Positions 33,563 to 58,840 of a stretch of 64,000 bases of DNA are shown here, piece by piece (position 1 is the first letter of the stretch; each line of letters opens with the position of its first letter). A program made the translations under genes and the position numbers. The notes beneath the pieces are model-generated. The model ran no database searches. It was not told where the DNA came from and was given only the letters and a program-made list of their open reading frames with translations. The stretch comes from a phage, in the sequence record PZ534511.1, one strand, 5' to 3'.

Positions 33563-33573
33563 AACAACCTTGC

Positions 33574-34047: not shown

Positions 34048-34209
34048 TTTATAGCATCCTTATTAGTCATGTTGTGCACCATATTTGTGTATTTTACCAT
34101 GATTATGGTGCATTGTCAATTTAACCTTTCAAGCAATTCAAGAACGTGTGTCAAAACCATAAAAGCAAAAAGCCCCACCCGAAGGTGAGGCTTATGCTAA
34201 AGTGTGCCC

Positions 34210-34683: not shown

Positions 34684-34693
34684 CTAGGCTTCC

Positions 34694-36070
34694 TTATTCA
34701 GTCATTGCAACAGCATTGGTGGATTTAGAACCAACTTTGTCCAGAAGGACGTTGATCCGGATACGGACGAAGTGCAGGGCGTTGTTATACACCAGTTCTA
34801 CTTTCACACCTTCCAGAACACGAGCAGCCAACTGATTGGTTGGGATTTCTGCACGTTTAGGAACTGTGATGATCGGGTCGTAGAATACATTATTGTCTTC
34901 GTCGAAACCTGTCAGGATCGCACCATTCTTAATGCCAGTGTTGATTGGGTTGTTCATCAGGACAGACTTGATAACCGGAAGATCATCATCAGACATCTTC
35001 ATGCTTAAACCCATGTTGGAGCGACGATGCATGTACCCAAACATAGATTCTTCAGATCTGAACTTGATCCAGTGTGCAAAACGAATAGCGTCTGCATACT
35101 GACCTGAAGCACACTTACCTTCCCAGAAAGCGCCAACACCGTTAATCATTCTGTAGAAGTTAACGTGGTTTTCCCAAATAGCCATACGCTGAGTTAAAGT
35201 CAGAGACGGTGCAATCACACCTGGCATCTGTTTTAAGTGCAAGCTGTCGCCGTAAGACGGATCGTTGGATGCCATAGCACCTATGATACCACCCTCCGGG
35301 AAGTCCTTATCTGCACGAGGATCGTACATGCCAACACTGTCATATTGTGCAGCCATCAGTTTGGTGGCGATGTTATTATCTTTGCCAGTCACATCTTCTG
35401 CAGTAGAGTAGACATGCAGCTTGTAGTTAGCCTGAGCCCACTTCGCACATGCTTCAATGTCGGTGTGGTCTTCATGGCACAGGAAGTACCAATTGTCACG
35501 CTCAGCATTGATCTTATCAACTACTGTAGAAGGTTTTTCAGCATTGGCGATATTTTTGATTGTATAGTTACCAGTATGATAACCAACAGTACAGTCACCC
35601 GTGATGGTGAGAACACCGTCTTCAGCCGCTACAGTGATATCGTCCAAGTTATCATCTGCTTCGATTTTAGTCTTCATGGACTCTGCAATCTGAGTTGCAC
35701 CTGTTCCACCAGAGATAGGCACTATCAGAGAAGTATTGTAGCCACCTTTTGCAATAGTCATTACGACATCGGTATCAGCTGCGGCAGCAATACCTTTAAA
35801 ATCTACAGTGGTTTTTTCTTTTGCCTGTCTGCCGATCATAACATACTGCGGAGGGAATACACCGCCGAAAGCTTTTGCTGCAAACTCATAAGCTGCAGAG
35901 CCTTGTGCGAAACCGTCTTCCACCATCTGATCCAGCTCAGCATATACACGAGCTCGCTCAGTAAAGTTGTTGTGGATAGCGATGAACAGCGGAGTTTCGA
36001 AACCTACAGTGTCAATAGGCTGGGTTCCGAGGTTAACTGTAACATCTACCACTTTATCTAAATATGGCAT
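34694..36070 (-). CDS. major tail protein, probably contractile sheath (458 aa)
   Basis: Size, operon position before tube and chaperones; C-terminal part (GAFWEGKCASG ... VELVYNNALHFVRIRINV) resembles sheath C-terminal domain from memory. Confidence 0.45.
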   Translation of the reverse strand: MPYLDKVVDVTVNLGTQPIDTVGFETPLFIAIHNNFTERARVYAELDQMVEDGFAQGSAAYEFAAKAFGGVFPPQYVMIGRQAKEKTTVDFKGIAAAADTDVVMTIAKGGYNTSLIVPISGGTGATQIAESMKTKIEADDNLDDITVAAEDGVLTITGDCTVGYHTGNYTIKNIANAEKPSTVVDKINAERDNWYFLCHEDHTDIEACAKWAQANYKLHVYSTAEDVTGKDNNIATKLMAAQYDSVGMYDPRADKDFPEGGIIGAMASNDPSYGDSLHLKQMPGVIAPSLTLTQRMAIWENHVNFYRMINGVGAFWEGKCASGQYADAIRFAHWIKFRSEESMFGYMHRRSNMGLSMKMSDDDLPVIKSVLMNNPINTGIKNGAILTGFDEDNNVFYDPIITVPKRAEIPTNQLAARVLEGVKVELVYNNALHFVRIRINVLLDKVGSKSTNAVAMTE

Positions 36071-36112
36071 TTGTTTCCTCTTAATATCTGTGCACGGATA
36101 TCAAACACGCAG

Positions 36113-36127
36113 TGTAATCATTACACT
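36113..36127. promoter_or_regulatory. perfect 15-bp palindrome upstream of sheath gene
   Basis: gtgtaatcattacac is its own reverse complement; lies in 72-bp gap upstream of 36070 start. Confidence 0.3.
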
Positions 36128-36142
36128 ACACAATTATAACGA

Positions 36143-36694
36143 TTACTGACCACTGTCTGTAACCGCTTTACCAGAATTGGGTGAAGGGAAGTGTGTGGTT
36201 ATTTCAGCCTTAATTCCCTGAAGATCCTCAAAAGCCCCAATGTCTGTTTCAACAAACCTTACGTTAAATGTCAGCATCACAGTGGCTCTATTTTCATACG
36301 TCTGCTTATTCAACGGCACTCTTTGAGGTGAGATTGTTGAATTGTTAGAGTAGGCAAAGCACGATCCCAGAGGGAAATACTTGTCATAAAACATTGGAAG
36401 GTTTATTGCTTGCAATACTCTGCTAAGTGCAGCATATGCTCTGCCACGATAAGCTGTTAACAGATAAGTAACAGTGTAACTGTGGGTGACGTAAGCATTA
36501 CCCTCTGCATCTTGAAACTCATTATCTTCCCAAGTTGTGGGATTGATCGCCAAGGTTTGTAAAAGTACAAACTCACCTTCCGGCTTCGGTATGGTAGAGC
36601 TTTCTGCCAGAACTACAGTTCTTCCTGTGGCAACCTTGACGAGCTTAGCAATGGTTGTTTCAAGATCAGAAAAAACTTTTTCGAAAGCTTCCAT
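36143..36694 (-). CDS. neck/tail completion protein (183 aa)
   Basis: ORF track; between head and tail genes. Confidence 0.3.
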   Translation of the reverse strand: MEAFEKVFSDLETTIAKLVKVATGRTVVLAESSTIPKPEGEFVLLQTLAINPTTWEDNEFQDAEGNAYVTHSYTVTYLLTAYRGRAYAALSRVLQAINLPMFYDKYFPLGSCFAYSNNSTISPQRVPLNKQTYENRATVMLTFNVRFVETDIGAFEDLQGIKAEITTHFPSPNSGKAVTDSGQ

Positions 36695-37119
36695 CAGTTT
36701 TCTCCTTCAGGCTCTTCTACTACAAAAAATCTATATCTCCCACCACCAGAGGTAACATATGCATCGCATTTTAAAACGGTAAACCATTTCAAGTCACCAC
36801 GAATGTCAGGAAGTTGAATTTGATCAGCCATTGCATATGTCCCTTCATCCGGACTATACAACTTGGTTGAAGAGTAAACTGTAAAAGCCTCGTACTGTCT
36901 GTCACCTTCAGGGTTTATTTGAGAGGAGTAATCTTTAGCTGCCCTTCCTGTCAACGGCTGCACAACACACTCTAAGACATCAAACTCTTCATACTCAAGT
37001 TCTAACCCCTCGTTGGCAAAAGGGCCACCAACTGTTTTGTTATACACTCTGTGGCGACCTTTGAATGTTTTACGAGGTATTAGTCTGTTCTTTCCTATCA
37101 GCTTATAACCTGCTGCCAC
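36694..37119 (-). CDS. head-tail joining protein (141 aa)
   Basis: ORF track; operon position. Confidence 0.3.
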   Translation of the reverse strand: MAAGYKLIGKNRLIPRKTFKGRHRVYNKTVGGPFANEGLELEYEEFDVLECVVQPLTGRAAKDYSSQINPEGDRQYEAFTVYSSTKLYSPDEGTYAMADQIQLPDIRGDLKWFTVLKCDAYVTSGGGRYRFFVVEEPEGEN

Positions 37120-37134
37120 TCAACCCCCTTATTT

Positions 37135-37605
37135 TTACTGTCCGATTTTAAAGGTTGCAGATTCAAGCAGCACATCGTAATGCCGCATAGCCTCGTTGAA
37201 GCCCTTTTCTTGTGCCCACTGCTCACTAACAGTAGGATTACTAAACTGCCCAGCCTCAATAACAAACTGGATAGCTTTGGCCCCTGTGTCCCCCATCTGC
37301 TTAAGAATAGCCTCTGCACTTGATCCTCTAGCCATAGCTCTCAACAATTTTTCTGTCAAGGTCTGTAGTTGAGTACTATGAAATGCAAAGGCTGTCTCCA
37401 TGAAATTGCGAACAGGCAGCCCGTTCCAACCGAAGTTGTGAATGGCTGCCAATGTTGCCATATTTAAGCCTGACGGGTGAGGTTCGTCATAAAAGCCGTA
37501 GGTTATTGTTTTACTTTCAAGTCTCACAAGTTCTTTGTAGAAGCGATCTAAACGCTTTAGGTTGAACCTTGTTTGACATTTAACCTTTAGCATTATATCC
37601 CTCAC
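37135..37605 (-). CDS. head-tail connector/completion protein (156 aa)
   Basis: ORF track; operon position. Confidence 0.3.
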   Translation of the reverse strand: MRDIMLKVKCQTRFNLKRLDRFYKELVRLESKTITYGFYDEPHPSGLNMATLAAIHNFGWNGLPVRNFMETAFAFHSTQLQTLTEKLLRAMARGSSAEAILKQMGDTGAKAIQFVIEAGQFSNPTVSEQWAQEKGFNEAMRHYDVLLESATFKIGQ

Positions 37606-37646
37606 TAATGTATTTTACCACAAAGATACATCAAAAGCAACAATTT

Positions 37647-38267
37647 TTAAAAACTGCGTTTGCGTCTTGGGTGGCGAGGAGGTTGGTTATTTAGACCACT
37701 GATAGGTGTAATCCCCTGGACATCGAACGGTCCGTTGCTGTTTTCATTAAATTTAACCCGAATTCCTTCGTCTACACGAACACCACCAATGATAATCATT
37801 CTGCTGTAAGCATCTAGCTCAGAATCTACATAGTCTGGGTGTGCCAGCAGCCAATCAAGGAAATCCTTCCATTGGGCGTAGGAAGATCCACCACGAATCT
37901 CTATGGTCTCATCACCTATTTTTTCCAGACGGGAAGTTATACTTGCATTACCACTGGACACTTCCTGCATCATCAGCCACCGCACAAGCTGCACAAGCAC
38001 ATTGTACTTAAGCAGGGGCAGCTTATCAGGATCTGCCGGATAATTTAGTTTCAACTTCTCCATGTCAAGGAATGTTTTAATTACCTCATCAGGGAGGGTT
38101 TCCTCATCAACATTGCCAAGTAACAACCTCATAATATTAATAAGAGGTTGGTCTGGATCAGGTTCCGGAGGTACAGGATCTTCTTTTGGTGGTTCTTCTG
38201 GGGTATCGACTACACCATCATGGTTAGGCGGTGACGGGATAATCTCTTCATCTTCATACCATGCCAT
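37647..38267 (-). CDS. head-tail adaptor protein (about 206 aa)
   Basis: Start trimmed to ATG at 38265-38267 (MAWYEDEE) with GAGG RBS; track start at 38324 overlaps upstream gene. Confidence 0.3.
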   Translation of the reverse strand: MAWYEDEEIIPSPPNHDGVVDTPEEPPKEDPVPPEPDPDQPLINIMRLLLGNVDEETLPDEVIKTFLDMEKLKLNYPADPDKLPLLKYNVLVQLVRWLMMQEVSSGNASITSRLEKIGDETIEIRGGSSYAQWKDFLDWLLAHPDYVDSELDAYSRMIIIGGVRVDEGIRVKFNENSNGPFDVQGITPISGLNNQPPRHPRRKRSF

Positions 38268-38326
38268 TTGAAAATACCTCGTAAAAATAAAGCCCCATTC
38301 CTGATTTGGAAGGGGCCTTAACAAAA

Positions 38327-39154
38327 TTATGCCAGTGCAGCCTCAAAATCTTTCATCATATTTTGGAAAGTTTTTGCCTTACTTAAGGTAACACCGTACT
38401 CTTTAGCGAAGGCTTGAAGTGCATCTTTTGAACCACTTTTGTCATCTTCGTTGTTAAGAGCTGCGGCCTGTTTAAGGATTTCATCCTTATTCTCAATGGC
38501 TACAAATGAGGAAGAGGATACAGTCACATCTTGCGGATCTGCTACAGTAACTTCACCGTCACCACCAGGTTCAGTAGGACCTACAGGCGGCTCCGGCTCT
38601 GGTTCAGGCGGTGGAGCTATCGTAGAGACCAGTCCAAGATTTACAACCTGAGAACGTTTCTTAGGCCACTCAATGGTGAAAGTTTGGGTATCTTCTTCAT
38701 AAACAATGTTGCATTGCTCATCGTTTATGGTCACTTTTTTAGGCATCCCTACAGGGTCCCATAGATGGCCCTCTGCCACGGAAACTTGGAAAGCAGCATC
38801 TACCTCTTTAAACACTGAAGGAGTTAGTGTGATATTGACATCCCCGCTTTGCAGTGTTAAAGTGCTTTCATCAAGGTTCTCTGTGAAGAACAGAAGAATA
38901 ACACCCATACGGATAGTTGAAATACCAGTATCAATTGGCAGGCCTGTGTGTTTTGCAATCTTCTGGAAGAAGTCTACAATCGTTCTGCATGGATAGTGAA
39001 CACTGCCAATAACGAATTCTGTTGGTGGCAGAAGAGCTGATAAACCAACATTGATTTCTGGATTGTATTGTGCTAAAAATTGATAAAAACTTAACTGATT
39101 GTTGAAAACTCTTAATAGAGGATCATACTCAACTGGATATACGGCTCTCTTCAC
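38327..39154 (-). CDS. head-associated protein with Pro/Glu-rich linker (275 aa)
   Basis: ORF track; PPPEPEPEPPVGPTEPGGDGE linker; downstream of capsid gene. Confidence 0.3.
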   Translation of the reverse strand: MKRAVYPVEYDPLLRVFNNQLSFYQFLAQYNPEINVGLSALLPPTEFVIGSVHYPCRTIVDFFQKIAKHTGLPIDTGISTIRMGVILLFFTENLDESTLTLQSGDVNITLTPSVFKEVDAAFQVSVAEGHLWDPVGMPKKVTINDEQCNIVYEEDTQTFTIEWPKKRSQVVNLGLVSTIAPPPEPEPEPPVGPTEPGGDGEVTVADPQDVTVSSSSFVAIENKDEILKQAAALNNEDDKSGSKDALQAFAKEYGVTLSKAKTFQNMMKDFEAALA

Positions 39155-39174
39155 GGGACACTCCTGTTAAACCC

Positions 39175-39210
39175 TAATAAATAAAAAGGGGAGGGGAGAA
39201 CCCCCTCCCC
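39175..39210 (-). terminator. strong rho-independent terminator after major capsid gene
   Basis: ggggagggg-agaa-cccctcccc hairpin (39188-39210) followed on minus RNA by UUUUUAUUUAUU. Confidence 0.7.
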
Positions 39211-39234
39211 GTATGGGATGAATCACCTTAGTGA

Positions 39235-40245
39235 TTAGCCACCGTTTTTCAGAGTTACTTTAACAACCAGCTCCGGACGGGTGTTAACTGCCAGCATAGA
39301 AGTTTCAGATTCAATCTTCTCTTCACGCAGGTATGCAGAGTGTTTATACCACATATACAGTTCCTGTGCTGGAGTATTTGCTTCGTTAACATCGTCTGCC
39401 GGAGCAAAGTGCAGCTGGAACATCTGATCAATACCCATCGGCAGAATGCGAGCTTCTTTCTTAGGAATATTGCCAGAGATATCTTCGATAAAGGTGATAC
39501 CTTTATGTTCGAACACACGATAAACGCTGTCCTGACCGCCAGCACCCAGACGACGACGCAGAGGTTCCTGAGCAGAGCCGTAGTAGGTGTATGCCAGCTC
39601 TACCAGAGGGTGGTGAGTGATTGCACTGAAGAACTCAGGAGAGCACAGAGCCACGATACGGTAGCCAGCAGCGTTGTCACCAGCTTGCAGGGCGATATGC
39701 AGACGAGCGTCTTCCAGAACTTCCATCGGGTCCTGATCTGCTTTTGCTGGATCGATTTCTACAGATTTCTGATCTACGCCCCACAGAGTGTAGTAGTCAT
39801 ACTGACAGGTTGTGTCACCAGGTGCATAGGATTTACCCAGAATAGCCTGGAACAGCGCTTTCTCACGCAGTGCTTCATGAGAAACACGGATACGGCGAAC
39901 AACGCGGGTTACTACGTCCTGAACAGTTTTCGGAGCATCAGGGGTGAAGTAACGACGGAAGTTCTGAACATCTGCTGCGGTGATGCCTTTGTCCAGAGGG
40001 AAGAACGGGATGTTCAGGTTTTTAACCTGAGCACGTTCACTACCAACGTAGTTACGCTCACCACCACGACGGCGTGCCGGAATGTCGGTTACAACTTCAT
40101 CAACACGCTCAATCTGAGCAATTGTTGAGGTGCCGAGACGGGTTTCGAACAGATCCATACCAGTAATCAGGCGGAATTGACGTGGAACAAGGTCCAGAGT
40201 AGCACCTAAATCAACAATGCCAAATTCATCTTTACGAGTAATCAT
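39235..40245 (-). CDS. major capsid protein (lambda gpE-like family)
   Basis: 336 aa, position after scaffold and decoration-like genes and before strong terminator; size and composition typical of E-family capsid proteins. Confidence 0.55.
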   Translation of the reverse strand: MITRKDEFGIVDLGATLDLVPRQFRLITGMDLFETRLGTSTIAQIERVDEVVTDIPARRRGGERNYVGSERAQVKNLNIPFFPLDKGITAADVQNFRRYFTPDAPKTVQDVVTRVVRRIRVSHEALREKALFQAILGKSYAPGDTTCQYDYYTLWGVDQKSVEIDPAKADQDPMEVLEDARLHIALQAGDNAAGYRIVALCSPEFFSAITHHPLVELAYTYYGSAQEPLRRRLGAGGQDSVYRVFEHKGITFIEDISGNIPKKEARILPMGIDQMFQLHFAPADDVNEANTPAQELYMWYKHSAYLREEKIESETSMLAVNTRPELVVKVTLKNGG

Positions 40246-40293
40246 TTATTTCTCCAAAGTAAAACTTAAATATTTTCCCGAACAATTTAGGAC

Positions 40294-40683
40294 TTACTCT
40301 TCACCAAGAGTCTGGACGTGAACTTTGTTACCCAGAGCTTCCAGCTTTTCAAGAACAGCCTGCTTAGCTGCTTCACCGTTAGACCCCAGCAGCTTATCTT
40401 TTGCAAAGGTAACACCGTGAACTGCAACAACCAGTTTATATTTCTGACCTGTTTGCAGAGGCTCAGCAAGATGAACTTTTCCTGCATCTTTTACCAAAGC
40501 TCGGTCTACAAGAACACCATAAACGTCTGAGCCATCATCGTTAGCGATAGTGCCAGTTTTTGTTACAACAGTACCCGCATGGTGGTGCTCTGTCAGTGTA
40601 ATTTCCATCTCTTTAAAATTGTAGCCAGCATCGCTAGAATCAACTTTGCCGAGCACGATATCAGAATATTGAGCGGTAATCAT
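40294..40683 (-). CDS. head decoration/capsid-associated protein (129 aa)
   Basis: Small protein between scaffold and capsid genes (gpD-like position). Confidence 0.3.
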   Translation of the reverse strand: MITAQYSDIVLGKVDSSDAGYNFKEMEITLTEHHHAGTVVTKTGTIANDDGSDVYGVLVDRALVKDAGKVHLAEPLQTGQKYKLVVAVHGVTFAKDKLLGSNGEAAKQAVLEKLEALGNKVHVQTLGEE

Positions 40684-40703
40684 TTATTTCCCCCGTTAAT
40701 GTC

Positions 40704-41681
40704 TTATTTGTTAGATTCTGCACGTGCACGAGCAAGTGCTTTTGCAACGTTTTCAGCAAGAATTTCTTCTGCGGATTTCGCAATATCATCCACAACAGGT
40801 TCGCCATCATTACCATGTTCAGTGGTGGCAAACTCTTCTTTAGTTTTATGCACCTCTGCTTCCAGCTCTTCAATTTTTGCTTGAGCTTTCTCCAGCATAG
40901 CTACGATAGGTTCGTTAGCTTTTTCCAGCATGAAGTTAACCAGGGTTGCGTGATCTTCTTCACCAACAAAGCTTAAAGCTTGAGCCTTAGTCAGCATTTT
41001 AGCTTTTTCAACTTCAACCTGGGCCTTGATGATTTCTTCAGCTTTACTCTGGGTTGCTTTCAGCTCTTCTACTTGCTTCAGCAGATCCAGATACTCTTTA
41101 GTTTTGGTTACGTCCACCGGATTCTCCTCGGTATTTGCGGATTTTGCAACATCATCCACCTCGGTAGTTTTATCCACCTCAGCAGGTTCCTGTACCGCCT
41201 TGATCAGGTTCCCTTCTTTATCGAAGAGATCAGCGGTTACTTGTTCAAAAATCTGTTGTGTTTTTAACAGGCTGTATTGATCTACCACACTAAGCTGCTT
41301 GCCTTCTTTTGCAGCTTTATGAATGGTCACGTTATCACAACGCTCTTCCAGCCATGCAATACAAGACTCTGCGTCAGCTTGCGCCCATTCCCAATCAGGA
41401 TGCTCTTTAGCCCAAGCCTCCTCTTCAATCTCAAAACCAAGCATGTGTGCAAGTGCTTTAGCATCATCATACCACATATCGAAGAAACGACGCAGGTATT
41501 CTTCAAAACTAAGCTCCACAGTAACTTGGCGAAGTGCCTTAACAATGTCGTCTGTTAACTGCTCAGGCTTAAGATCACTCTTCATTAAAAGAGATACAGG
41601 TCTGTTGTTAGCGCTATAGCCTTGCGCCTTATGGCACAGGGCAATCCCCTTCTCTTTAATAGTAATCGTTTTTTCAGACAT
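40704..41681 (-). CDS. scaffolding protein (325 aa)
   Basis: Highly acidic, coiled-coil-like sequence (EELKATQSKAEEIIKAQVEVEKAK), between protease-like gene and capsid. Confidence 0.5.
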   Translation of the reverse strand: MSEKTITIKEKGIALCHKAQGYSANNRPVSLLMKSDLKPEQLTDDIVKALRQVTVELSFEEYLRRFFDMWYDDAKALAHMLGFEIEEEAWAKEHPDWEWAQADAESCIAWLEERCDNVTIHKAAKEGKQLSVVDQYSLLKTQQIFEQVTADLFDKEGNLIKAVQEPAEVDKTTEVDDVAKSANTEENPVDVTKTKEYLDLLKQVEELKATQSKAEEIIKAQVEVEKAKMLTKAQALSFVGEEDHATLVNFMLEKANEPIVAMLEKAQAKIEELEAEVHKTKEEFATTEHGNDGEPVVDDIAKSAEEILAENVAKALARARAESNK

Positions 41682-42112
41682 TATTCATTGCCCTCTTCTA
41701 CAACACTGATTCCGAAGTTTACGTTGGTAATTTCACCAGTTTCTTCATCAACATTACCTGTTGCCTGAATGCTTAGGCCACCAACAATGCCAGCCTTCTT
41801 AGCTTCCCATAGTTCAGGATTATTGTATTTAACTTTAGCAACCCAAGAGCCAGCCTTGATGACCTGCTCAGTGCCAATTACTACAACATCAAACTCTTCT
41901 TGAATCCACGTCTTTTCAATAGTGAAAGCATCTGTAGAGGTCAAGTGAAAAAGGTTTTCAGAAACTAGGCCTGCGGCGTATGCTGCGTCCCAGTTATCTT
42001 TAGCCTTTTTGATGGTGTCTTTACTCATCCACTCACCGTGAGCATCTTTAGTGTCAGGCTCGTAGATGATTTCGTAGGAAATCATTTCTTCCTGTGGCAT
42101 CTTATTCCCCAT
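41681..42112 (-). CDS. prohead protease or head maturation protein (putative)
   Basis: ORF between portal and scaffold; start moved to first ATG after portal stop (42110-42112); true start uncertain. Confidence 0.3.
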   Translation of the reverse strand: MGNKMPQEEMISYEIIYEPDTKDAHGEWMSKDTIKKAKDNWDAAYAAGLVSENLFHLTSTDAFTIEKTWIQEEFDVVVIGTEQVIKAGSWVAKVKYNNPELWEAKKAGIVGGLSIQATGNVDEETGEITNVNFGISVVEEGNE

Positions 42113-42167
42113 GTGGATTATTTTATCACGCCAAAGGAGGTTTTGCAACCCCCTGTGTTGATAATTT

Positions 42168-43724
42168 TTAATTTTCCATGTTGGATATGGAATTATCTCT
42201 GGTTGATGACATCTTAGAAGTGCCGTTACCAGTGGATCCTGCAGCCATTCCATCACCAGCCCTACTGATGTCCTGGCCCAAGAGCTTCATCAGCTCTTCC
42301 TGATCCATGTCCTCGTCAAATCTTTCATCAAACCCGCCTACTTCAAGAATCTTATTAATTACTGCAGGAGTTTTTGGCAAGTAACCTACAGCACCGATCC
42401 TCTGGACAAATTTGGAGAAGCTCTCCATGTCCACCTCTTCAATCAGACCAGGTTTCAGTTTAGGCATATCATCATCTTCAAGGATGATACCATTCAATGC
42501 CAGAAGCTGTGGAATAAGATCCTTATTGAAGGCTTCAGTGATAATATCTATATCACGCTGAACAAAATGACCATGGATAGACTGTTTTGACTCAGACAGA
42601 GAGAAGGATCCAACGTTATCGTTACCGAGGTTAATAAAGCCAGCACCGAAACGGTCAAGAATCGCCTTCTTACGGGCATCAATCAAATCTTTAGTCGAAT
42701 ACTGCTTACCCATACCATCAACCCCCTTCAGGGTCATGGAGTAAAGCTCTTTACCAGACTTATCTCTATCAGACGGAAGTATAAAGAAACTTTGCTCACC
42801 ACTATGGGCGTTTGCTGCGTCAAGCATAAGGTCTGCAACCATTCTCCCTTCCATTGAATTCGGGTCAATGCTGGCCTTGTTCAAAATATTGGAAGGAATT
42901 TTCAGCTCAAGCACGCCACCAAGGTCTTTGGAACAGCCAACAACCTCAAGGTTTTCAATCAGAACTTTCTCACGGAAAGATCTGTAGCAACCTATCATCG
43001 GTGACACACCTGCAGGGTTAGATTCTGTTCCTGACAGGGTCATGAGCATAAGCTTTTTAGCAGGGATGAAAATTTCAGGCTCATTAAAGCCTTTTGAAGG
43101 CATTGCAGCAAGAGGTCCAGCCCAGCGTGCATTCTGAGTGTTTAGAAATGCATTAGGTGACTGATAAATACCTGTCAGTGTTCTACTATTCTTGTCAAAA
43201 ACAAACGGCTCTGATCTGGACAGGCTGGCCTGAGGTCGGAATGCAATTTTATCAATAAGAAGCATCCCGGCATATTTACCTTCTTTCTCTCTGCGGTATA
43301 CTTTCTCAAACAGTGAAAAACCATACTCGTTAAAGGTAGCTGCGCTTCTTGCAATATCTCGAAGAGTTTGTTGGTTTGCCAAATTACGCAAAGAATACTC
43401 TATAAGCTCGGCAGCTTTCTTAGAGTCTTCACTTTTAACATTATAAAGGATCTTAAAATCATTGAATGCTTTCGTGATGAAAACATATTTTGTATCTAAG
43501 GCAGTAGCAACTGTGGAATCACATTTCATAGTCTCCACTGTGGCAATCAGCTGAGGCCAACGCAATTCCTCAACCATCATAGATTGCGATTCTGCCATAA
43601 TTTGGGAAAGTGCGCCAGAACCGATCTCACTCATACGAACATTATGAGTTGGTGCGCCTGCGTTCCCAGATTTATTCACAGTTTTGGCTGTGGCGTTGTG
43701 TTTCCTGCGGTTCTTTTTGGACAC
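42168..43724 (-). CDS. portal protein (518 aa)
   Basis: Size and position directly downstream of terminase large subunit; GTG start with GAGGGG RBS. Confidence 0.55.
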   Translation of the reverse strand: MSKKNRRKHNATAKTVNKSGNAGAPTHNVRMSEIGSGALSQIMAESQSMMVEELRWPQLIATVETMKCDSTVATALDTKYVFITKAFNDFKILYNVKSEDSKKAAELIEYSLRNLANQQTLRDIARSAATFNEYGFSLFEKVYRREKEGKYAGMLLIDKIAFRPQASLSRSEPFVFDKNSRTLTGIYQSPNAFLNTQNARWAGPLAAMPSKGFNEPEIFIPAKKLMLMTLSGTESNPAGVSPMIGCYRSFREKVLIENLEVVGCSKDLGGVLELKIPSNILNKASIDPNSMEGRMVADLMLDAANAHSGEQSFFILPSDRDKSGKELYSMTLKGVDGMGKQYSTKDLIDARKKAILDRFGAGFINLGNDNVGSFSLSESKQSIHGHFVQRDIDIITEAFNKDLIPQLLALNGIILEDDDMPKLKPGLIEEVDMESFSKFVQRIGAVGYLPKTPAVINKILEVGGFDERFDEDMDQEELMKLLGQDISRAGDGMAAGSTGNGTSKMSSTRDNSISNMEN

Positions 43725-43744
43725 AAGCTTTACCCCTCAAAACA

Positions 43745-43774
43745 GTATAACAAAATAGCCCTCGTCAGAGGGCT
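43745..43774 (-). terminator. hairpin/terminator-attenuator between terminase and portal
   Basis: agccctc-gtcag-agggct perfect 7-bp stem (43757-43774) followed on minus RNA by AUUUUGUUAU. Confidence 0.4.
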
Positions 43775-43824
43775 AGTATCTCCAATTACTTTATTGTACC
43801 ACATCTAATTAAGATTGGCAACAC

Positions 43825-44625
43825 TTAGATAAAACGCTTGAACATAGAAGGTGATGAGATTGATGGAATCACACAAGGAAGTGCTACCTCCTCTTTCTCC
43901 AGGAAATTAATCGCAGAAGCTACGCAGTCGGCCCAGTCGTCTTTTCTGTTAAATGTTGATCTTTCCCCGTTGAATTTTTCAAGTTCAGTCAGAAATGCTT
44001 CCAGAGTATCAGGATGGAAACTGGATTTTACAATCCTCACCATTCCTTGTTGGGCAAGATTGGCAAAAGGTGAGAACCTTGTCAGTTTAGACTTGTTGGA
44101 AGGCATTGGGTCTTCTTCAACCCTGAACCCTTCGGCAAGCAAGGATCTGGAGGAGGTTAAGAACTCACTCTTACCTGCCTGCCCTGGGTCCACAGAGAAG
44201 ACGATTATGCAATCATCACCATCGAACTGCGCCTGTTTCCTGATGATCACATCTCGTTCACCAGCCTTTTTACAGAACTTGCCTTCCAGACCTGTGGAAT
44301 ACCTCCCGTCATCCACGTTCTCAGGACAATAATCACCGGACAGGTAATAAAAGCCGTCGCTATCTTTACTTACCTTAATACTGGCAGTAAAGTCAGGAAA
44401 TTTATTACCGGAAGTTCTCTCGGTTCCTGCCTTATCCCATGCCCTGCAAGATACTGACCCAAGAGGTACTCTATCGGCATCACGAAGGAAAGATCTTTGA
44501 AAATAGTTTGCACCCTCAGGCTTTGCAAACCAGTTACCATGGAGAAGCTGAGCTTTTTCCAGCTCTGGTAGACCTTCAAGGAAAGCAAGGTATTCTGGGT
44601 TATCTCTCAGGCAGACAGGATTATC
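43825..44625 (-). CDS. terL: terminase large subunit, exon 3 (nuclease domain); 5' boundary approximate
   Basis: Frame open from about 44631 to stop at 43825; contains nuclease-type acidic motifs (CRAWDKAGTE, DCIIVFSVDPGQAG, KDDWADCVASAIN); upstream intron carries group I R/S-like elements. Confidence 0.6.
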   Translation of the reverse strand, partial: DNPVCLRDNPEYLAFLEGLPELEKAQLLHGNWFAKPEGANYFQRSFLRDADRVPLGSVSCRAWDKAGTERTSGNKFPDFTASIKVSKDSDGFYYLSGDYCPENVDDGRYSTGLEGKFCKKAGERDVIIRKQAQFDGDDCIIVFSVDPGQAGKSEFLTSSRSLLAEGFRVEEDPMPSNKSKLTRFSPFANLAQQGMVRIVKSSFHPDTLEAFLTELEKFNGERSTFNRKDDWADCVASAINFLEKEEVALPCVIPSISSPSMFKRFI

Positions 44626-45604
44626 GAATCCTTATATTCAAAGGTGGTCGCAACACCACCTTCCGCACCTTTACGTGCTGCTGCATGTTACCATGCAGAG
44701 TAGACTATATCACCACCCATTTCAGGGTGCTTCGCTTTTCGAGCGCCATAAGCTTGCGCCCTACTCCCTCTCGGGATAGTCGTTGAACTACATTACCAAT
44801 CGTAATTGTTTGAAATATAGGTGTAAGTCTTACGGTCTTTTATTCCTTTAACAACACTAAAACTTACTCCCCACTTCTTAGCTATTTTATTGACACACAA
44901 GACCTTATCACTAAGATCCTCGCAGATACCTATTATCTTGTGCTCACTTATCCGATTAGAGGTTGGCACTTTTCTAAAGTTAAACTCTTTAGAAATATCT
45001 GGGTATACTGAGCCATTCTTTATACCACTTACAAGTGGTTGATTGACACCGAACATTTCACAAATGTCTTTTACCCTTGCGCCTTGTTCTAACAGCCTAC
45101 ATATTTCAAGAGCAGTGGCATCATCCAGGGACCTGTATTTATTGACATAGTCCTTTTTAAGTCCCATTTCATGAGCGTGATGTGTGTTTTCCTCAGGCGT
45201 TGTCCACTCAAGGTTCCATGCGGCGTTATTCAACTTATTACCATCTAGGTGGTTTACTTGAGTTTTCACGCTGGGATTGTCATTATCAACAAAAGTCATA
45301 GCAATCACTCTGTGAACGAGCACTTGGAACTTTTTACCGTCCTCGCACAAAGTTACCATAGCATAGCCAGTCTTTTTCTGCACATTAGGATGGAGGAATT
45401 TATTAGAATACAGACTGTAAATTCTGCCATCGTATGTAGCACAATAATGATTGTAGCCTAAAAAGCCTAAATTTTTCATTTCAAACATCTCCCTACTACA
45501 GGTTCGGAAGGGTAATTATAGCTGCTGATTGTCCGTTTAGCAATCGGATTTCCCAGCAATTAACGAAGTTATTCGACGTGCATTTCTGCACGAAGCCACT
45601 ATCA
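44626..45604 (-). mobile_element. group I intron 2 in terminase gene (boundaries +/- about 15 nt)
   Basis: Separates terminase exon 2 and 3; contains HNH ORF plus conserved-looking elements GTTCAACGACTA (plus-strand tagtcgttgaac 44778-44789) and GATATAGTC (plus 44703-44711). Confidence 0.55.
44793..45488 (-). CDS. HNH homing endonuclease (intron-encoded)
   Basis: 231 aa; HNH core NHLDGNKLNNAAWNLEWTTPEENTHH; located wholly within intron 2. Confidence 0.65.
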   Translation of the reverse strand: MFEMKNLGFLGYNHYCATYDGRIYSLYSNKFLHPNVQKKTGYAMVTLCEDGKKFQVLVHRVIAMTFVDNDNPSVKTQVNHLDGNKLNNAAWNLEWTTPEENTHHAHEMGLKKDYVNKYRSLDDATALEICRLLEQGARVKDICEMFGVNQPLVSGIKNGSVYPDISKEFNFRKVPTSNRISEHKIIGICEDLSDKVLCVNKIAKKWGVSFSVVKGIKDRKTYTYISNNYDW

Positions 45605-45925
45605 TTTAATGGTTGCGCCTATAAACGAGAATGACAACGGTCTTGGCTTGATCTCAACACCCAGTCCGTTAACCGTGGTGTATTTCTCTATCAACTCTTC
45701 TTTAGAGTCTCCCCAGATAAATTCACCGTCGCGTCGGATAAAATATCTTTTCTTACCGCATTTCTCCGGATCTGGATACCCTTCATCGTCCAACCACCAT
45801 CTAACCAGTTTGGCAAGCATGTGTTCTGAATCGGGGTTACAGCTGATAACCATTCTTGATGGATACTTTGACTGAGATCGCAGACGAGACATCAGATAGT
45901 CTATCTGCTCCCATTCGAATTGTGT
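45605..45925 (-). CDS. terL: terminase large subunit, exon 2 (ATPase coupling region); boundaries approximate
   Basis: Frame open 45928..45605; sequence TQFEWEQIDYLMSRLRS...MVISCNPDSEHMLAKL continues logically after exon 1 Walker B (FDEG). Confidence 0.55.
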
Positions 45926-46808
45926 CGTTTATGTTCGGGCAAGGTCGCTAGTCTTGCCCCGCCATTTTCAGGCAGCTGCATGTCTCCATGCAGACCAGAC
46001 TATATCTTATGAATGTGTAAATACTCTGCCGCTCTAAGAATAGTTTCCTCATCCTCTTGGAAGAAACCTAAAGCTCTGTTGCATTTATCACAAAGCAACC
46101 CTCTTACAGCACCAGTTTTATGGTCATGATCAACACAAAAGAAATCTCTATACCCTTGCGTCCTATACTCATCAAGGGATATTCTACAAATGGCACACTT
46201 ATGATCTTGATCTGAGAGTAGACGATAGTATTCATCTTTTGTTATGTGAAATTTCTTCTCAATCTGATAAAACTTTTCACACATCTTACACCTGTTCGTA
46301 ACCAGATATACTTTACCATAGTCACGTTTTGTGTAAAAACTATCAGCGAGCATACTTTCATGACAAGATTTGCATTCAAAAAGTTCACCTTTCTTCAGCA
46401 AGTCTTGAATAAACAATGCTGCGTCATCTCTCTTAACCATATTTTTGTTTTTACGAGATCCACCCTTCCTGTAGTACATATAGCATTCCTTGCATGTACC
46501 TGAGTATCCATCCTTGCTCTTAGATGATAAAAAGAAATCATCAATAGGTAGAACTCTTTGGCAATCCATACATTTTTTAGTATTACACATTCACCCTCCC
46601 GTTTCGAATCGCTTGATTCTACGTCTTTCGACTAGTCGTTGAACGTTCATCCTCTCGGATGCTTCGCTGCGGATTATCTAAATTAACACACTGTTACCAT
46701 ACCTTCGATCTCTCTTCGAAGCCTCTATCATGTTACCATGACAGGTTGGTGGTGTCAATAATAAAGATTTCCCCGCAATTAGGGAGGTTTTACGAGAGCT
46801 ACAAATTA
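45926..46808 (-). mobile_element. group I intron 1 in terminase gene (boundaries +/- about 15 nt)
   Basis: Inserted immediately after Walker B codons; contains R-like element (plus tagtcgttgaac 46633-46644), HNH ORF, S-like element (plus gactatatc about 45999-46007). Confidence 0.55.
46000..46590 (-). CDS. HNH/endonuclease VII-like homing endonuclease (intron-encoded)
   Basis: 196 aa; N-terminal Cys-rich zinc finger and C-terminal CVDHDHKTGAVRGLLCDKCN motif; ATG with GGGAGGG RBS; inside intron 1. Confidence 0.65.
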   Translation of the reverse strand: MCNTKKCMDCQRVLPIDDFFLSSKSKDGYSGTCKECYMYYRKGGSRKNKNMVKRDDAALFIQDLLKKGELFECKSCHESMLADSFYTKRDYGKVYLVTNRCKMCEKFYQIEKKFHITKDEYYRLLSDQDHKCAICRISLDEYRTQGYRDFFCVDHDHKTGAVRGLLCDKCNRALGFFQEDEETILRAAEYLHIHKI

Positions 46809-47234
46809 ACCCTCATCGAAGCAAACCATGGTATACTCAAGCCCTTGATGGTTAAGCTTATCTTGTACATACTCCATGTGGCAGTATTTTACAACAGCTC
46901 CCTTTTTGCTTCTATCCCACTTGCCGGTGTTCGGATCAAACCGTGGAAAAATGAACTTATGATCCTTCTCTCTGAACTTTGGCTTAATGTTTTCAGGCAG
47001 ATCACTATAAATAGCTACTGCTTTAGGCCATAGTCCACCCTCACCTTCCAACTGTGGGGTTGTTCTTCGGAACATAACCACAGAGCTGTGGGGGTCATCA
47101 ATAATTTTAAGTGGCATCAATTGCAAGAGGAACGACTTGCCAGACCCTGCGGCACCGCCGATTACCAAAATATCTGCATCGTTTTCAAGGATCATCTTCT
47201 GCTTTTCAGAACACGGTCCGTAAATCTTAGACAT
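46809..47234 (-). CDS. terL: terminase large subunit, exon 1 (ATPase Walker A/B)
   Basis: Walker A GGAAGSGKS, Walker B MVCFDEG at exon end; in-frame TAA follows immediately (intron start); ATG overlaps spanin stop (TAATG). Confidence 0.7.
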
Positions 47235-47521
47235 TAACCTCTCTCCTTTGGAAACAGTGTTCTAATATAGTCTTGCAAAATGATCAATTTAGCTCTATCA
47301 TTGCTACAAGACAGATTATTATCCCTCATAATGCCAGAATTCACTGCATCTGGCGCACCTTTCTTCAAAGGCATAGCTTTAGCAGGTGGTTTCATGGCAC
47401 CTTCCGGGGGTTTAACAATCAACCTTCCTACATCAGGAGGGTCAATCTTGTATTCTCTCTCAACGCTGGTTGCACACCCACATAATAACAAGCACACAAT
47501 AAACAGTGCAGCAACTCTCAT
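47234..47521 (-). CDS. o-spanin (Rz1-like outer-membrane lipoprotein)
   Basis: 95 aa; signal peptide ending in lipobox-like LLCGC, Pro-rich mature region; overlaps i-spanin by 4 nt. Confidence 0.55.
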   Translation of the reverse strand: MRVAALFIVCLLLCGCATSVEREYKIDPPDVGRLIVKPPEGAMKPPAKAMPLKKGAPDAVNSGIMRDNNLSCSNDRAKLIILQDYIRTLFPKERG

Positions 47522-47916
47522 CGACCCTCCTGATTAATACTCTCATTATAAATATCTATAAGCTGATCAGGGAGTGTTGACTTCTTACCCTCAGGTGATT
47601 GGAGGTAAATAATCTGCTTTTCTTTACCTGCCCTCTCAGCTATATTTAATTTATCCTGCAGATCAGAAAGAGATTTTTCAAGGTTTTTAACCTCCTCTGC
47701 GTGGCCCATTTTAATCTTGTCGGCCTGCTTTTGTTGCTGATCAAGGATCCGTTCCCACTTTAACTCTGTTGCTGACACACCCTCCTGGTAGGCATCATTA
47801 AGCTTGGAGTTAAACCAATACACGGCCCCAAGATAAGCTGTACCTATCGCAGCTGCAAAAACTAAACCTTTTATGATCCCTTTATACCTACTCAGCCATG
47901 TTAAAACTGAAATCAT
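47518..47916 (-). CDS. i-spanin (Rz-like)
   Basis: 132 aa; N-terminal TM (GLVFAAAIGTAYLGAVYW) followed by coiled-coil periplasmic domain. Confidence 0.55.
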   Translation of the reverse strand: MISVLTWLSRYKGIIKGLVFAAAIGTAYLGAVYWFNSKLNDAYQEGVSATELKWERILDQQQKQADKIKMGHAEEVKNLEKSLSDLQDKLNIAERAGKEKQIIYLQSPEGKKSTLPDQLIDIYNESINQEGR

Positions 47917-47930: not shown

Positions 47931-47965
47931 AACGAAAAAACCCCGCAGCTATGCAGCTAACGGGG
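47931..47965 (-). terminator. rho-independent terminator upstream of spanin genes
   Basis: ccccg...cgggg stem with internal agct pairing (47941-47965), U-run on minus RNA from aacgaaaaaa. Confidence 0.45.
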
Positions 47966-48021
47966 CGGGTTAAAATTGAGTAACCTAAATAGATCGAAAC
48001 TAACTAAAAGGAGACTAATAC

Positions 48022-48582: not shown

Positions 48583-48681
48583 GGTGCTAGGTGATGGAAT
48601 CGAACCACCTATGTATTCAACGACTACCTCGTCTATTTTCAGGATTAAAAATCCTCGCCCTTGCCAAAGGGCTTACCTAGC
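48583..48681 (-). tRNA. atypical tRNA-like gene (about 99 nt; identity unresolved, CCA not encoded)
   Basis: Perfect 7-bp acceptor (GCUAGGU/ACCUAGC), D-arm GCCC/GGGC, T-arm GGUGG-UUCGAUU-CCAUC, but about 47 nt between D- and T-arms containing AGGAUU-UUU-AAUCCU hairpin and a second GACGA-GGUAG-UCGUU hairpin. Confidence 0.45.
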
Positions 48682-58099: not shown

Positions 58100-58570
58100 A
58101 TGAAACTTGATAAAAATGTTCAACGAAAAGCTTTCTTGGATATGATCGCATATTCAGAAGGCACAGATAATGGTAGACAACCCACCAAGGATCGGGGCTA
58201 TGATGTCATAGTTGGTGGCAAGCTGTTTAGCGATTACAGCAAGCATCCAGGTGTGTACGTTAAGCTAAATGCTAAACTTACCTCCTCCGCTGCTGGGCGT
58301 TACCAGGTTTTGGAGAAGTTTGCTAAACACTACATGGAACAGTTAGGATTGCCAGATTTTGGCCCTGCCAGTCAGGACAAGATTGCGTTGCAACTGATCC
58401 GTGAGTGCAAGGCTCTCGCCGACATTGACGAAGGGCGTATCCACGAGGCTATCCATAAATGTCGTTCCCGCTGGGCTTCGTTACCTGGTGCTGGATATGG
58501 TCAGCATGAACAGAAGATTGAGAAGTTGATCGAGGTGTTTAAAAAGGCAGGCGGTGTTGTCCTTGATTGA
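58100..58570 (+). CDS. endolysin, lambda R-like lytic transglycosylase
   Basis: Near-identity of blocks to lambda R from memory: QRKAFLDMIAYSEGTDNGRQ, GYDVIVGG, AAGRYQ, WASLPGAGYGQ. Confidence 0.85.
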   Translation: MKLDKNVQRKAFLDMIAYSEGTDNGRQPTKDRGYDVIVGGKLFSDYSKHPGVYVKLNAKLTSSAAGRYQVLEKFAKHYMEQLGLPDFGPASQDKIALQLIRECKALADIDEGRIHEAIHKCRSRWASLPGAGYGQHEQKIEKLIEVFKKAGGVVLD

Positions 58571-58633: not shown

Positions 58634-58840
58634 ATGAAAGATTTTCTGTTGGCAATTTTGTTCATGGCAGCATGTCTGGCCTGTGGTGTCGTGTTTGCAG
58701 GTGAAACAGCGTATCTTGTCGATGTATATCGGGACAATGGTAAACGTATTTGCCTTTATGAGACAAGCCAAGGTGAGCTCTACGAGCTTGTGAAACAAGG
58801 CGAGGCTGGATCTTGTCCTCGCACCCATTTCTTTGAATGA
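58634..58840 (+). CDS. small membrane/secreted protein (possible lipoprotein or holin-like lysis accessory)
   Basis: 68 aa; N-terminal hydrophobic segment LLAILFMAACLACGVVFA; AGGAGGG RBS; directly after endolysin. Confidence 0.35.
   Translation: MKDFLLAILFMAACLACGVVFAGETAYLVDVYRDNGKRICLYETSQGELYELVKQGEAGSCPRTHFFE

Follow-up and report, generated by a model that had tools for sequence, protein, structure and literature searches.

Gene content of the locus

The window, i.e. the whole stretch of phage DNA that was analysed, is 64,000 nt long (record PZ534511.1). A 4-kb query taken from it was 98.4% identical to HdK5 and 98.1% identical to rV5, with the rV5 match spanning only 85% of the query, and the phage is a coliphage of the rV5 type (Vequintavirus). 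Both spanin genes and the terminase gene lie on the minus strand, in the order tRNA cluster, i-spanin, o-spanin and terminase large subunit (TerL).

The i-spanin gene (47518..47916, minus strand), recognised by ORF translation, hydropathy and PHROGs, encodes a protein of 132 aa and is orthologous to rV5 gp068 (ORF67). A single N-terminal transmembrane domain (TMD) was found at residues ~14-32, with a hydropathy peak of 1.8, and the basic residues R10, K12 and K16 lie ahead of this helix or at its start. Because basic residues precede the helix, an N-in/C-out (type II) topology is predicted, by simple hydropathy and charge rules. The protein contains no Cys. It matched the 'Rz-like spanin' family phrog_4297 over profile positions 1-130 of 130 (E 4.2e-49), and its charged heptad-like region gave only generic coiled-coil matches. 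Orthologues are labelled Rz-like spanin or i-spanin in the RefSeq record of rV5 and in many other records. A large-database protein search with the i-spanin returned only proteins at least 83% identical to it, making a deep alignment impossible. The AF2 models of both spanins were built on shallow or single-sequence input and are usable for secondary structure only; that of the i-spanin, of low confidence (pLDDT 49), contains helices at 5-100 and 117-127.

The o-spanin gene (47234..47521, minus strand), recognised by ORF translation, lipobox and PHROGs, encodes a lipoprotein precursor of 95 aa, the orthologue of rV5 gp067 (ORF66). Its N-terminus reads MRVAALFIVCLLLCG followed by C, with a predicted SPase II lipobox LLCG↓C, Cys16 and Ala (A17) at position +2; since there is no Asp at +2, the lipoprotein should be sorted to the outer membrane. 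The mature protein of 79 aa is Pro-rich (9 Pro) and carries one further Cys, C72. It matched phrog_1267, also 'Rz-like spanin', over profile positions 5-89 of 119 (E 1.3e-22), and the AF2 model, again of low confidence (pLDDT 59), shows a signal helix at 3-14, a disordered middle part and a helix at 75-89. In Pfam and NCBIfam scans neither spanin gave anything above noise, and the matches for the neighbouring genes were Terminase_6N and Endonuclease_7.

Four sister genera (five genera with the window phage) keep the Gly-Cys of the lipobox without exception despite identities of only 37-40%, and C-terminal spanin motifs are conserved there as well. At the position of C72, PVP-SE1, Mydo, pEa56 and GAP31 have A or G, indicating that this Cys is not a conserved feature of the family, and the sister-genus pairs have no periplasmic Cys at all. 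An intermolecular disulfide has been described as near-universal in spanins, with ~4% exceptions (Kongari 2018, PMC6139136). The Cys pattern of the window pair, none in the i-spanin and one in the o-spanin, is compatible with the T4 type.

TerL exon 1 (46810..47234, minus strand) carries a Walker A motif, GGAAGSGKS, and matched the terminase large subunit families phrog_9526/979 (E 5e-76); exons 2 (about 45609..45926) and 3 (43825..about 44629) follow on the same strand. Splicing in silico gave a protein of 515 aa, 69% identical to the uninterrupted TerL of PVP-SE1, and the sister genera retain the N-terminal pattern MSK..GP.S.KQKMILEN, starting at residue 1.

The spanins of rV5 (YP_002003570 and YP_002003569, both 'Rz-like spanin') are 95.5% and 97.9% identical to the i- and o-spanin of the window, respectively, and differ from them by point substitutions only. 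Both phages share the lengths of 132 and 95 aa, the two junctions (ATGA and TAATG) and the flanking genes, with the tRNA cluster upstream and an intron-split TerL downstream. In the window, TerL intron 1 holds an EndoVII-type homing endonuclease; rV5 appears to lack this insertion: its match spans only 85% of the 4-kb query, and its record annotates only an HNH_3 endonuclease within TerL.

Taken together, the two adjacent genes show the features by which spanins are recognised according to Summer 2007 and Kongari 2018: a type II TMD and a helical domain in one product, a lipobox without Asp at +2 and a Pro-rich sequence in the other, and an ATGA overlap between them. The locus therefore very probably encodes the two-component spanin of an rV5-like myovirus (Vequintavirus), in the 'separated' gene architecture, an assignment that is bioinformatic throughout. 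The initial annotation had proposed an i-spanin/o-spanin pair from a transmembrane segment and a lipobox; the predicted TMD and lipobox, the ATGA overlap and the matches to phrog_4297 and phrog_1267 bear this out.

Gene junctions and transcription signals

The TGA of the i-spanin gene and the ATG of the o-spanin gene overlap as ATGA (47518..47521, minus strand; sequence read AGGAGGGTCGATGA), with the SD AGGAGG ahead, and the same overlap is found in PVP-SE1, Mydo, pEa_SNUABM_56 and GAP31. At the next junction (47232..47236, minus strand; sequence read AAAGGAGAGAGGTTAATG), the o-spanin stop overlaps the terminase start as TAATG, just as had been annotated, so that the last base of the TAA is also the first of the TerL ATG at 47234; the SD AAGGAGAGAGG lies ahead. 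This 23-nt junction is identical in rV5 and 241Ecol014PP.

Synteny of the spanin genes and TerL is kept in Seunavirus, Mydovirus and Henunavirus, with the same gene order, and in these three genera o-spanin and TerL are separated by a spacer of 96-128 nt (96-100 nt if measured to the conserved TTG/MSKTFGPAS start of TerL), which holds an intrinsic terminator and a promoter-like motif, GTGGTAAA(A/C)T. For PVP-SE1, transcription is predicted to start ~40 nt ahead of TerL. The direct TAATG junction is thus a derived state at the genus level, specific to Vequintavirus, in which the o-spanin stop abuts the TerL ATG because the terminator/promoter spacer is missing.

Upstream of the spanins, a centroid fold revealed an intrinsic-terminator-like hairpin (GCCCCGU.AGCU-GCAU-AGCU.GCGGGGU) followed by U6 (47935..47966, minus strand), which ends 18 nt ahead of the i-spanin ATG; a terminator scan match at 47956..47943 falls within it. 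No promoter-like site was seen between the hairpin and the i-spanin ATG, and neither a sigma-70 scan nor a search with the rV5 'late' motif GTGGTAAAAT found a promoter on the minus strand from 47917 to ~48900. In Vequintavirus, no promoter specific to TerL could be recognised. The spanins and the intron-split TerL are one tightly packed unit starting just past the terminator-like hairpin.

Of the 63 pairs of adjacent ORFs that share a strand in the window, 7 overlap by 1 nt. Such overlaps are the commonest junction type and join functionally unrelated genes; ATGA-type overlaps of 4 nt were counted at 4 more. The TAATG overlap permits termination-reinitiation and is most simply read as ordinary gene packing.

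Endolysin and candidate holins

The endolysin gene (58100..58570, plus strand) encodes a protein of the lambda R-type lytic transglycosylase fold family, as judged from phmmer against PDB and from PHROGs. It matched lambda lysozyme (1AM7/3D3D) over residues 4-154 (151 residues; E ~3e-56 to 4e-56) and the endolysin family phrog_90 (E 3e-56), and the catalytic SEGTD motif, including the Glu, is kept ('ysEGTDNGRQ'); there was no Pfam match at E<=0.1, and NCBIfam likewise gave nothing above noise. No TMD, signal or SAR domain was detected by hydropathy, suggesting a cytoplasmic, holin-dependent enzyme. The gene lies 10.2 kb from the start of the i-spanin gene, on the opposite strand, with an ATP-dependent DNA ligase gene upstream and a 68-aa ORF and then an HNH endonuclease gene downstream. 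The earlier description of a distant, lambda R-like endolysin on the opposite strand, with no canonical holin beside it, agrees with the 1AM7 match, the coordinates and these neighbours.

Three small ORFs had been proposed as holin-like. The first, the 68-aa ORF next to the endolysin gene (58634..58840, plus strand; rV5 ORF90; phrog_4641, unknown function), has an N-terminal hydrophobic segment at 4-22 with a possible SPase I site (VFA↓G) or lipobox-like site (FMAA↓C), followed by an acidic mature part, and from its sequence looks like a signal-peptide or lipoprotein precursor. It is found in Vequintavirus only, in 120 records, all at least 95% identical. As a homologue of T4 RI it was rejected (BLASTP E 20).

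The other two lie in the tail-fibre cluster. The 88-aa ORF (6754..7020, minus strand; rV5 ORF29) is a membrane-protein candidate, matching phrog_1322 'membrane protein' (E 3e-32), with two weakly hydrophobic segments, 19-residue hydropathy always below 1.6, and a charged C-terminal tail. Homologues were found in 359 phage records, spread over Vequintavirinae and phi92-like phages; none of these records calls the protein a holin, and the charged tails vary, including in length. A large-database search with it gave 13 unnamed clusters and one 'DUF2644' label, which a Pfam scan of the same proteins failed to reproduce, and homology with T7 gp17.5 was also discarded (BLASTP E 0.32). The 104-aa ORF (8165..8479, minus strand; rV5 ORF31; phrog_5345, unknown function) has one N-terminal TMD (5-23) and then a charged coiled-coil-like domain, which gave weak generic coiled-coil matches only. 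As basic residues follow the TMD, an N-out/C-in topology with a cytoplasmic coiled coil is predicted. It is present in 224 records across Vequintavirinae, always near the 88-aa ORF.

Scans of Pfam, PHROGs and NCBIfam, with thresholds relaxed up to E<=10, linked none of the three ORFs to a holin family; in Pfam and NCBIfam nothing rose above noise for them, and at E<=10 PHROGs gave no cross-matches to holin families for the candidates or T7 gp17.5. In the records of relatives, no depositor labels homologues of the 68-, 88- or 104-aa ORF as holin. None of them shows the combination of features by which holins are recognised, namely at least one true TMD, small size, a charged (usually basic) cytoplasmic C-terminus and either a holin-family match or linkage to the endolysin; of the three, the 68-aa ORF alone adjoins the endolysin gene. 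The three ORFs are real and conserved in relatives, and the name holin-like found no support. The only published holin candidate is rV5 ORF129 (78 aa), which has two strong TMDs and a charged tail and lies ~22 kb beyond the endolysin gene; a tblastn search of the window with ORF129 gave no homologue. Elsewhere in its genome, rV5 has genes for a SleB-like hydrolase and for rIIA/rIIB. The spanin locus does not contain the holin, and the window as a whole probably does not either. The proposed dispersal of lysis functions over three loci holds in so far as spanins and endolysin are apart, but the scheme is incomplete, with ORF129 outside the window and the other three ORFs lacking support as holins.

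Comparison with published accounts and with the spanins of T4, T7 and lambda

Kongari 2018 (PMC6139136) lists the rv5 i- and o-spanin families under 'separated', and Buttimer 2020 describes the spanins of rV5, PVP-SE1 and CB7 as adjoining the large terminase gene and not lying in a lysis cassette. The LL12 genome note (PMC6658697) gives TerL as gp64, o-spanin as gp65, i-spanin as gp66 and endolysin as gp90, with no holin identified. RefSeq and GenBank label the orthologues as Rz-like spanin, i-spanin or o-spanin; in the literature searched, no experimental report on rv5-family spanins was found. A spanin pair by the terminase, a distant lambda R-type endolysin and no recognisable holin are, therefore, already known from RefSeq and at least four papers. 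The layout, which had been presented as unexpected, is correct but ordinary: it is published for the rV5-like group and mirrors T7 and T4.

T4 PseT.3/PseT.2 resemble the window pair in the separated architecture with a stop/start overlap, in an i-spanin without Cys and in an o-spanin with a periplasmic Cys and a C-terminal helix. Like those of rV5-type phages, the T4 spanin genes are distant from both the holin gene and the endolysin gene, and T4 too is a large virulent myovirus with rII genes. However, no sequence similarity can be detected between the two pairs, and their PHROG and Kongari families differ; PseT.2 carries two Cys, both essential, whereas the window o-spanin has one, and the T4 pair is not beside the terminase. 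In T7, the spanin genes 18.5 and 18.7 are directly upstream of the large terminase gene, as in the window, and the endolysin gene is likewise far off (in the early/middle region), with the holin gene beside the tail-fibre gene. Unlike the separated window pair, the T7 pair is embedded (18.7 inside 18.5) and preceded by TerS, and a gap of 21 nt parts it from TerL where the window has an overlap; moreover, the T7 spanins are an unrelated sequence family from a podovirus. Lambda Rz/Rz1 have the topology predicted for the window pair, in which an inner-membrane protein of type II, its periplasmic domain a coiled coil, is joined by a Pro-rich outer-membrane lipoprotein; the mechanism is presumed to be shared, and lambda R is a close homologue of the window endolysin. 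The differences are that Rz1 is embedded in Rz, both within the S-R-Rz/Rz1 cassette, and that Rz has two periplasmic Cys while the window i-spanin has none; the sequences are not similar.

Proposed mechanism and alternative explanations

Following the paradigm of lambda Rz/Rz1 and T4 PseT.3/PseT.2, the i- and o-spanin would join via their C-termini into a complex spanning the periplasm, which would be held inactive by the intact peptidoglycan mesh. A holin would let the cytoplasmic lambda R-type endolysin destroy the wall, and the freed spanin complex would then fuse the inner and outer membranes, completing lysis. Because its action would be gated by wall integrity and not by expression timing, the position of the spanin genes in the genome would be unconstrained, and in the window they occupy a position that the whole subfamily has inherited.

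The pair might instead be another envelope module of an inner-membrane protein and a lipoprotein, acting, for example, in superinfection exclusion or receptor masking, in which case something else would disrupt the outer membrane. Its place outside any lysis cassette, the atypical lack of Cys in the i-spanin and of periplasmic Cys in the sister-genus pairs, and an expression class left open by the upstream hairpin and the missing late promoter motif would all suit such a role, and spanin function in the rv5 family is a bioinformatic attribution. Nevertheless, this explanation is very improbable: the full spanin hallmarks are conserved over five genera, with a C-terminal helix like that of T4 PseT.2, the annotations of these genomes name no further spanin candidate, both proteins have been assigned to spanin families by expert curators, and the spanins of T4 and T7 are also outside lysis cassettes. 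The junction of the o-spanin gene with TerL could be a selected device, in which translation of TerL needs ribosomes ending at the o-spanin stop, and the packaging enzyme and the outer-membrane disruptor are made simultaneously and in a fixed ratio. Such a device seems unlikely. The 1-nt TAATG overlap is indeed conserved in rV5 and 241Ecol014PP, TerL has a promoter of its own in the sister genera and none was found in Vequintavirus, and the MFE fold pairs AGAACACUG with CGUGUUCU in a helix of 9 bp, enclosing the TerL SD and AUG, which would be opened by a ribosome ending at the o-spanin stop. However, the predicted helix is no better than those of shuffled sequences (z -0.95; 35 of 200 fold as well), TerL is served by its own strong SD, and overlaps of the same kind join unrelated genes elsewhere in the window. 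In addition, a terminator and a promoter part o-spanin from TerL in the sister genera, showing that coupling is unnecessary for either function, and we know of no functional link between spanins and terminase. Of the claim that the pair is translationally coupled to the terminase, the TAATG overlap with its SD stands, whereas coupling itself was read from a single shared nucleotide; as a property of the system it fails, being absent from the sister genera with their 96-128 nt spacer.

The 88-aa protein, possibly together with the 104-aa one, could be the missing holin, or a holin and its regulator, with the lysis genes spread over the genome. There are parallels for a holin gene among tail-fibre genes, as T7 holin gene 17.5 comes directly after tail-fibre gene 17 and in T4 gene t comes behind gene 38. 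The small 88-aa protein combines two hydrophobic segments with a charged C-terminal tail that varies in length, and is conserved in 359 phage genomes of two subfamilies; the TMDs of T7 gp17.5 are similarly weakly hydrophobic, and several groups have failed to identify a holin in rV5-like phages. Even so, this reading is decidedly unlikely, considering that the 88-aa ORF resembles no holin family, T7 gp17.5 included, that its 19-residue hydropathy never reaches 1.6, and that ORF129 comes far closer to a canonical class II holin in its features. The N-out/C-in prediction for the 104-aa protein, with its cytoplasmic coiled coil, is unlike the known holin classes, and a role in assembly or adsorption would account equally well for the close association of its gene with those for tail fibres and chaperones. 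On this analysis, the stronger proposition that the 88-aa phrog_1322 protein, maybe with the 104-aa protein, serves as the holin of rV5-like phages, and the genus-restricted ORF129 does not, would have to be regarded as highly unlikely.

Significance for rV5-like phages

Beyond the sources found, the analysis of the two-component spanin locus adds that the TAATG junction is derived in the genus and that in Vequintavirus a hairpin precedes the spanins while TerL lacks a recognisable promoter. If the 88-aa protein did prove to be a holin, it would represent a new holin family common to Vequintavirinae and phi92-like phages. For the rV5-like group, which is used therapeutically, there are now four named holin candidates: ORF129 and the 88-aa, 104-aa and 68-aa ORFs.

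Spanin and endolysin genes

Over 4 kb around the spanin locus, identity is 98.4% to Escherichia phage vB_EcoM_HdK5 and 98.1% to rV5, with hundreds of kindred records; the window therefore makes up about half the genome of an rV5-like myovirus (Vequintavirinae, Vequintavirus). About 18 GenBank records (MG0656xx) titled 'Campylobacter phage', with Campylobacter jejuni as the host, are ~98% identical to this rV5-like coliphage and contain its spanins, endolysin-adjacent ORF and ORF129; their host label looks doubtful.

The spanin and terminase genes all lie on the minus strand. The i-spanin gene (47518..47916, minus) encodes 132 aa with a single hydrophobic helix (residues ~14-32), preceded by basic residues and followed by a charged region, and no cysteines. 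The product of the o-spanin gene (47234..47521, minus; 95 aa) carries a lipobox at its N-terminus (MRVAALFIVCLLLCG/C, with Cys16 and Ala at +2), and its mature part of 79 aa contains nine prolines and one more cysteine (C72). The stop codon of the i-spanin gene (TGA) overlaps the o-spanin start codon (ATG) in the sequence ATGA, with an AGGAGG Shine-Dalgarno (SD) sequence upstream. Low-confidence AlphaFold models show the i-spanin as one long helix and the o-spanin as a signal helix and a C-terminal helix joined by a disordered middle. The transmembrane helix, the lipobox and matches to PHROG families labelled 'Rz-like spanin' (E 4e-49 for the i-spanin and 1e-22 for the o-spanin) bear out the spanin pair of the initial annotation.

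The endolysin gene (58100..58570, plus) has a product without hydrophobic segments that matches lambda lysozyme from end to end (PDB 1AM7, E 3e-56), and is located on the opposite strand, 10.2 kb away from the spanin pair, in line with the earlier proposal of a distant lambda R-like enzyme. The spanin and endolysin interpretation is sound. The endolysin gene is flanked by an ATP-dependent DNA ligase gene on one side and by a 68-aa ORF (58634..58840, plus), then an HNH endonuclease gene, on the other. Homing-endonuclease content here differs among isolates: in the window a single HNH gene (58850..59314, plus) follows the 68-aa ORF, and in BASEL phage RudolfGeigy an extra endonuclease gene (10541-11224 of its stretch L003) separates the endolysin from the 68-aa ORF.

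Junction with the large terminase gene

The o-spanin TAA and the ATG of the large terminase (TerL) at 47234 have one base in common (TAATG), with AAGGAGAGAGG upstream. The TerL N-terminus, MSK..GP.S.KQKMILEN, is kept from residue 1 in the sister genera, and this ATG is therefore the true start. The overlap described in the initial annotation is thus present, but the special translational coupling to the terminase read from it is not supported. Of the 63 junctions between same-strand ORFs in the window, 7 have a stop/start overlap of one nucleotide and 4 others an ATGA overlap, so that TAATG is the usual way of packing genes in this genome. TerL also comes with a strong SD of its own, and the minimum free energy fold, in which the TerL SD and AUG fall within a 9-bp helix, is not superior to shuffled sequence (z -0.95).

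PVP-SE1, GAP31, Mydo and pEa_SNUABM_56 have the same gene order (i-spanin, o-spanin, TerL), but their o-spanin gene is separated by 96-128 nt from the annotated TerL start, or by 96-100 nt if counted to the conserved TTG start, whereas the genes of the window overlap directly. This spacer (L006:3172-3271, L007:3193-3320, L008:3178-3273 and L009:3142-3239 in the sister-genus stretches) is kept in Seunavirus, Mydovirus and Henunavirus and carries TTGACA together with an intrinsic terminator (GCCCTTAT..ATAAGGGC and a run of T), a motif GTGGTAAA(A/C)T resembling the rV5 'late' motif, and a GGAGG SD ahead of the TTG start; in Vequintavirus it is missing entirely. Since the sister genera keep the gene order but with a spacer, the spanin-TerL adjacency is a trait of the subfamily and the direct overlap a derived, genus-level state. 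The TerL gene of Mydo seems to be 13 codons too short as annotated.

What the sequences show directly for the spanins is their topology signals, lipobox, gene architecture, family membership and conservation across five genera. C72, the sole periplasmic cysteine of the o-spanin, is not kept in the sister genera, whose pairs belong to the ~4% of spanin pairs that lack Cys and were left unexplained by Kongari et al. (2018, PMC6139136).

The TerL gene (43825..47234, minus) is split by two group I introns with a homing endonuclease in each. Intron 1 (~45927..46809) matches Rfam RF00028 slightly below the gathering score (48.5 bits, E 2e-10) and contains an EndoVII-type ORF (46000..46590); the presence of a homing endonuclease in this intron differs among isolates. 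Intron 2 (~44630..45608), with partial RF00028 matches (35.7 and 19.8 bits), contains an HNH ORF (44793..45488). TerL spliced in silico has 515 aa and 69% identity to the uninterrupted TerL of PVP-SE1. The TerL introns of rV5 and LL12 were already published. A sigma-70-like match in intron 1 (TTGACA-17-TAACAT with TG; 46730..46758, minus), just 5' of the EndoVII-type ORF, may be the promoter of this endonuclease.

A strong terminator-like hairpin with U6 (47935..47966, minus), absent from the rV5 terminator list of Kropinski et al. (2013, Table S4), ends 18 nt ahead of the i-spanin start codon. Between this hairpin and the tRNA cluster, neither a sigma-70-like nor a GTGGTAAAAT-like site was found; the spanin-TerL unit is therefore without an identifiable promoter and may be transcribed by read-through from the tRNA promoter. 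With at most one mismatch, GTGGTAAAAT has 18 matches in the whole window versus 5.5 expected, nearly all on the late (minus) strand at 2994..43802, upstream of structural genes. The motif resembles an extended -10 element and agrees with the 'late promoter' motif proposed by Kropinski et al.

A tRNA-like gene of 97 nt (48585..48681, minus) has an anticodon loop with UUU (Lys) and 26 nt inserted at the position of the variable arm, a long arm being abnormal for tRNA-Lys. ARAGORN leaves its type undetermined and gives it a 4-base anticodon, and database records give tRNA-Lys, tRNA-OTHER or no annotation. The phage encodes a polynucleotide kinase, a phosphoesterase and an RNA ligase close by; a role in anticodon nuclease evasion is a lead rather than a result.

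Holin candidates and dispersal of lysis genes

The three small ORFs initially described as holin-like, of 88 aa (6754..7020, minus), 104 aa (8165..8479, minus) and 68 aa, are real and conserved, but the holin suggestion is not supported: comparison with Pfam, PHROGs and NCBIfam gave no holin family for any of them, and none is annotated as a holin by depositors. The 68-aa ORF, found in Vequintavirus only, has a hydrophobic stretch at 4-22 and possible processing sites (VFA/G or FMAA/C), and its product resembles the precursor of a secreted protein or lipoprotein. In the 104-aa ORF, one transmembrane domain (TMD) is followed by basic residues and a long coiled-coil-like tail. The 88-aa ORF, which is conserved across 359 phage genomes, those of phi92-like phages among them, has two segments of weak hydrophobicity and a charged tail that varies. 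Both are interleaved with tail-fibre and tail-fibre-chaperone genes (6754..9075, minus) and remain neighbours in Klebsiella, Salmonella, Pectobacterium, Erwinia and Cronobacter relatives (KpS11 26848-27105 and 27601-27912, for example), forming a conserved pair of predicted small membrane proteins within the fibre module. The T4 holin gene comes after a tail-fibre gene, as does that of T7, and by this analogy the 88-aa ORF is the least implausible holin of the three. Its homology to T7 gp17.5 was rejected, no similarity being found.

The published holin candidate is rV5 ORF129, MSINAVLIGYLVIAVITAVFLTGVCIVARRKVKFDDFITIITAAPFWPIVIFIVIMCLVDYYKNIRKEKKESRDGDRT (Kropinski et al. 2013), which combines two strong TMDs with a charged tail, is genus-restricted and fast-evolving (53-100% identity) and is located ~22 kb beyond the endolysin; no homologue was found within the window. 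A SleB-like hydrolase beside rIIA, and also rIIB, lie outside the window in rV5. Thus, the lysis functions are dispersed, as first suggested, but 'three loci' understates this, because ORF129, the SleB-like hydrolase and rIIA/rIIB lie elsewhere, and support is lacking for two of the three loci proposed.

The initial observation is confirmed as a whole (spanin pair, junctions, endolysin and small ORFs are all present), and the whole spanin/terminase/endolysin arrangement is already in the literature and RefSeq. In RefSeq rV5, gp067 and gp068, immediately 5' of the three-exon TerL, are labelled 'Rz-like spanin', and many GenBank records label orthologues i-spanin or o-spanin. Kongari et al. list 'rv5' families among separated two-component spanins, and Buttimer et al. 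(2020) place the spanins of rV5, PVP-SE1 and CB7 beside the large terminase and not in a lysis cassette, with VP4 and SP6 as further examples. The LL12 announcement (PMC6658697) gives TerL gp64, o-spanin gp65, i-spanin gp66 and endolysin gp90, its authors identifying no holin, and Kropinski et al. (2013) describe the rV5 lysin as apart from the putative holin, 'as in phage T4'. The genes in the T7 record are arranged alike: tail fibre 17, holin 17.5, TerS 18, spanins 18.5/18.7 and TerL 19, with a distant endolysin. The significance is accordingly low, the arrangement being known, the coupling generic and the holin proposals unsupported.

By analogy with the established lambda and T4 paradigms (see also Kongari et al. 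2018), the i-spanin and o-spanin subunits would bridge the periplasm, restrained by the intact peptidoglycan mesh, and would fuse the inner and outer membranes after the endolysin removes the peptidoglycan. Because spanin activity is gated by wall integrity and not by the timing of expression, spanin genes are free to sit anywhere, which explains their dispersal in T4, T7 and this phage.
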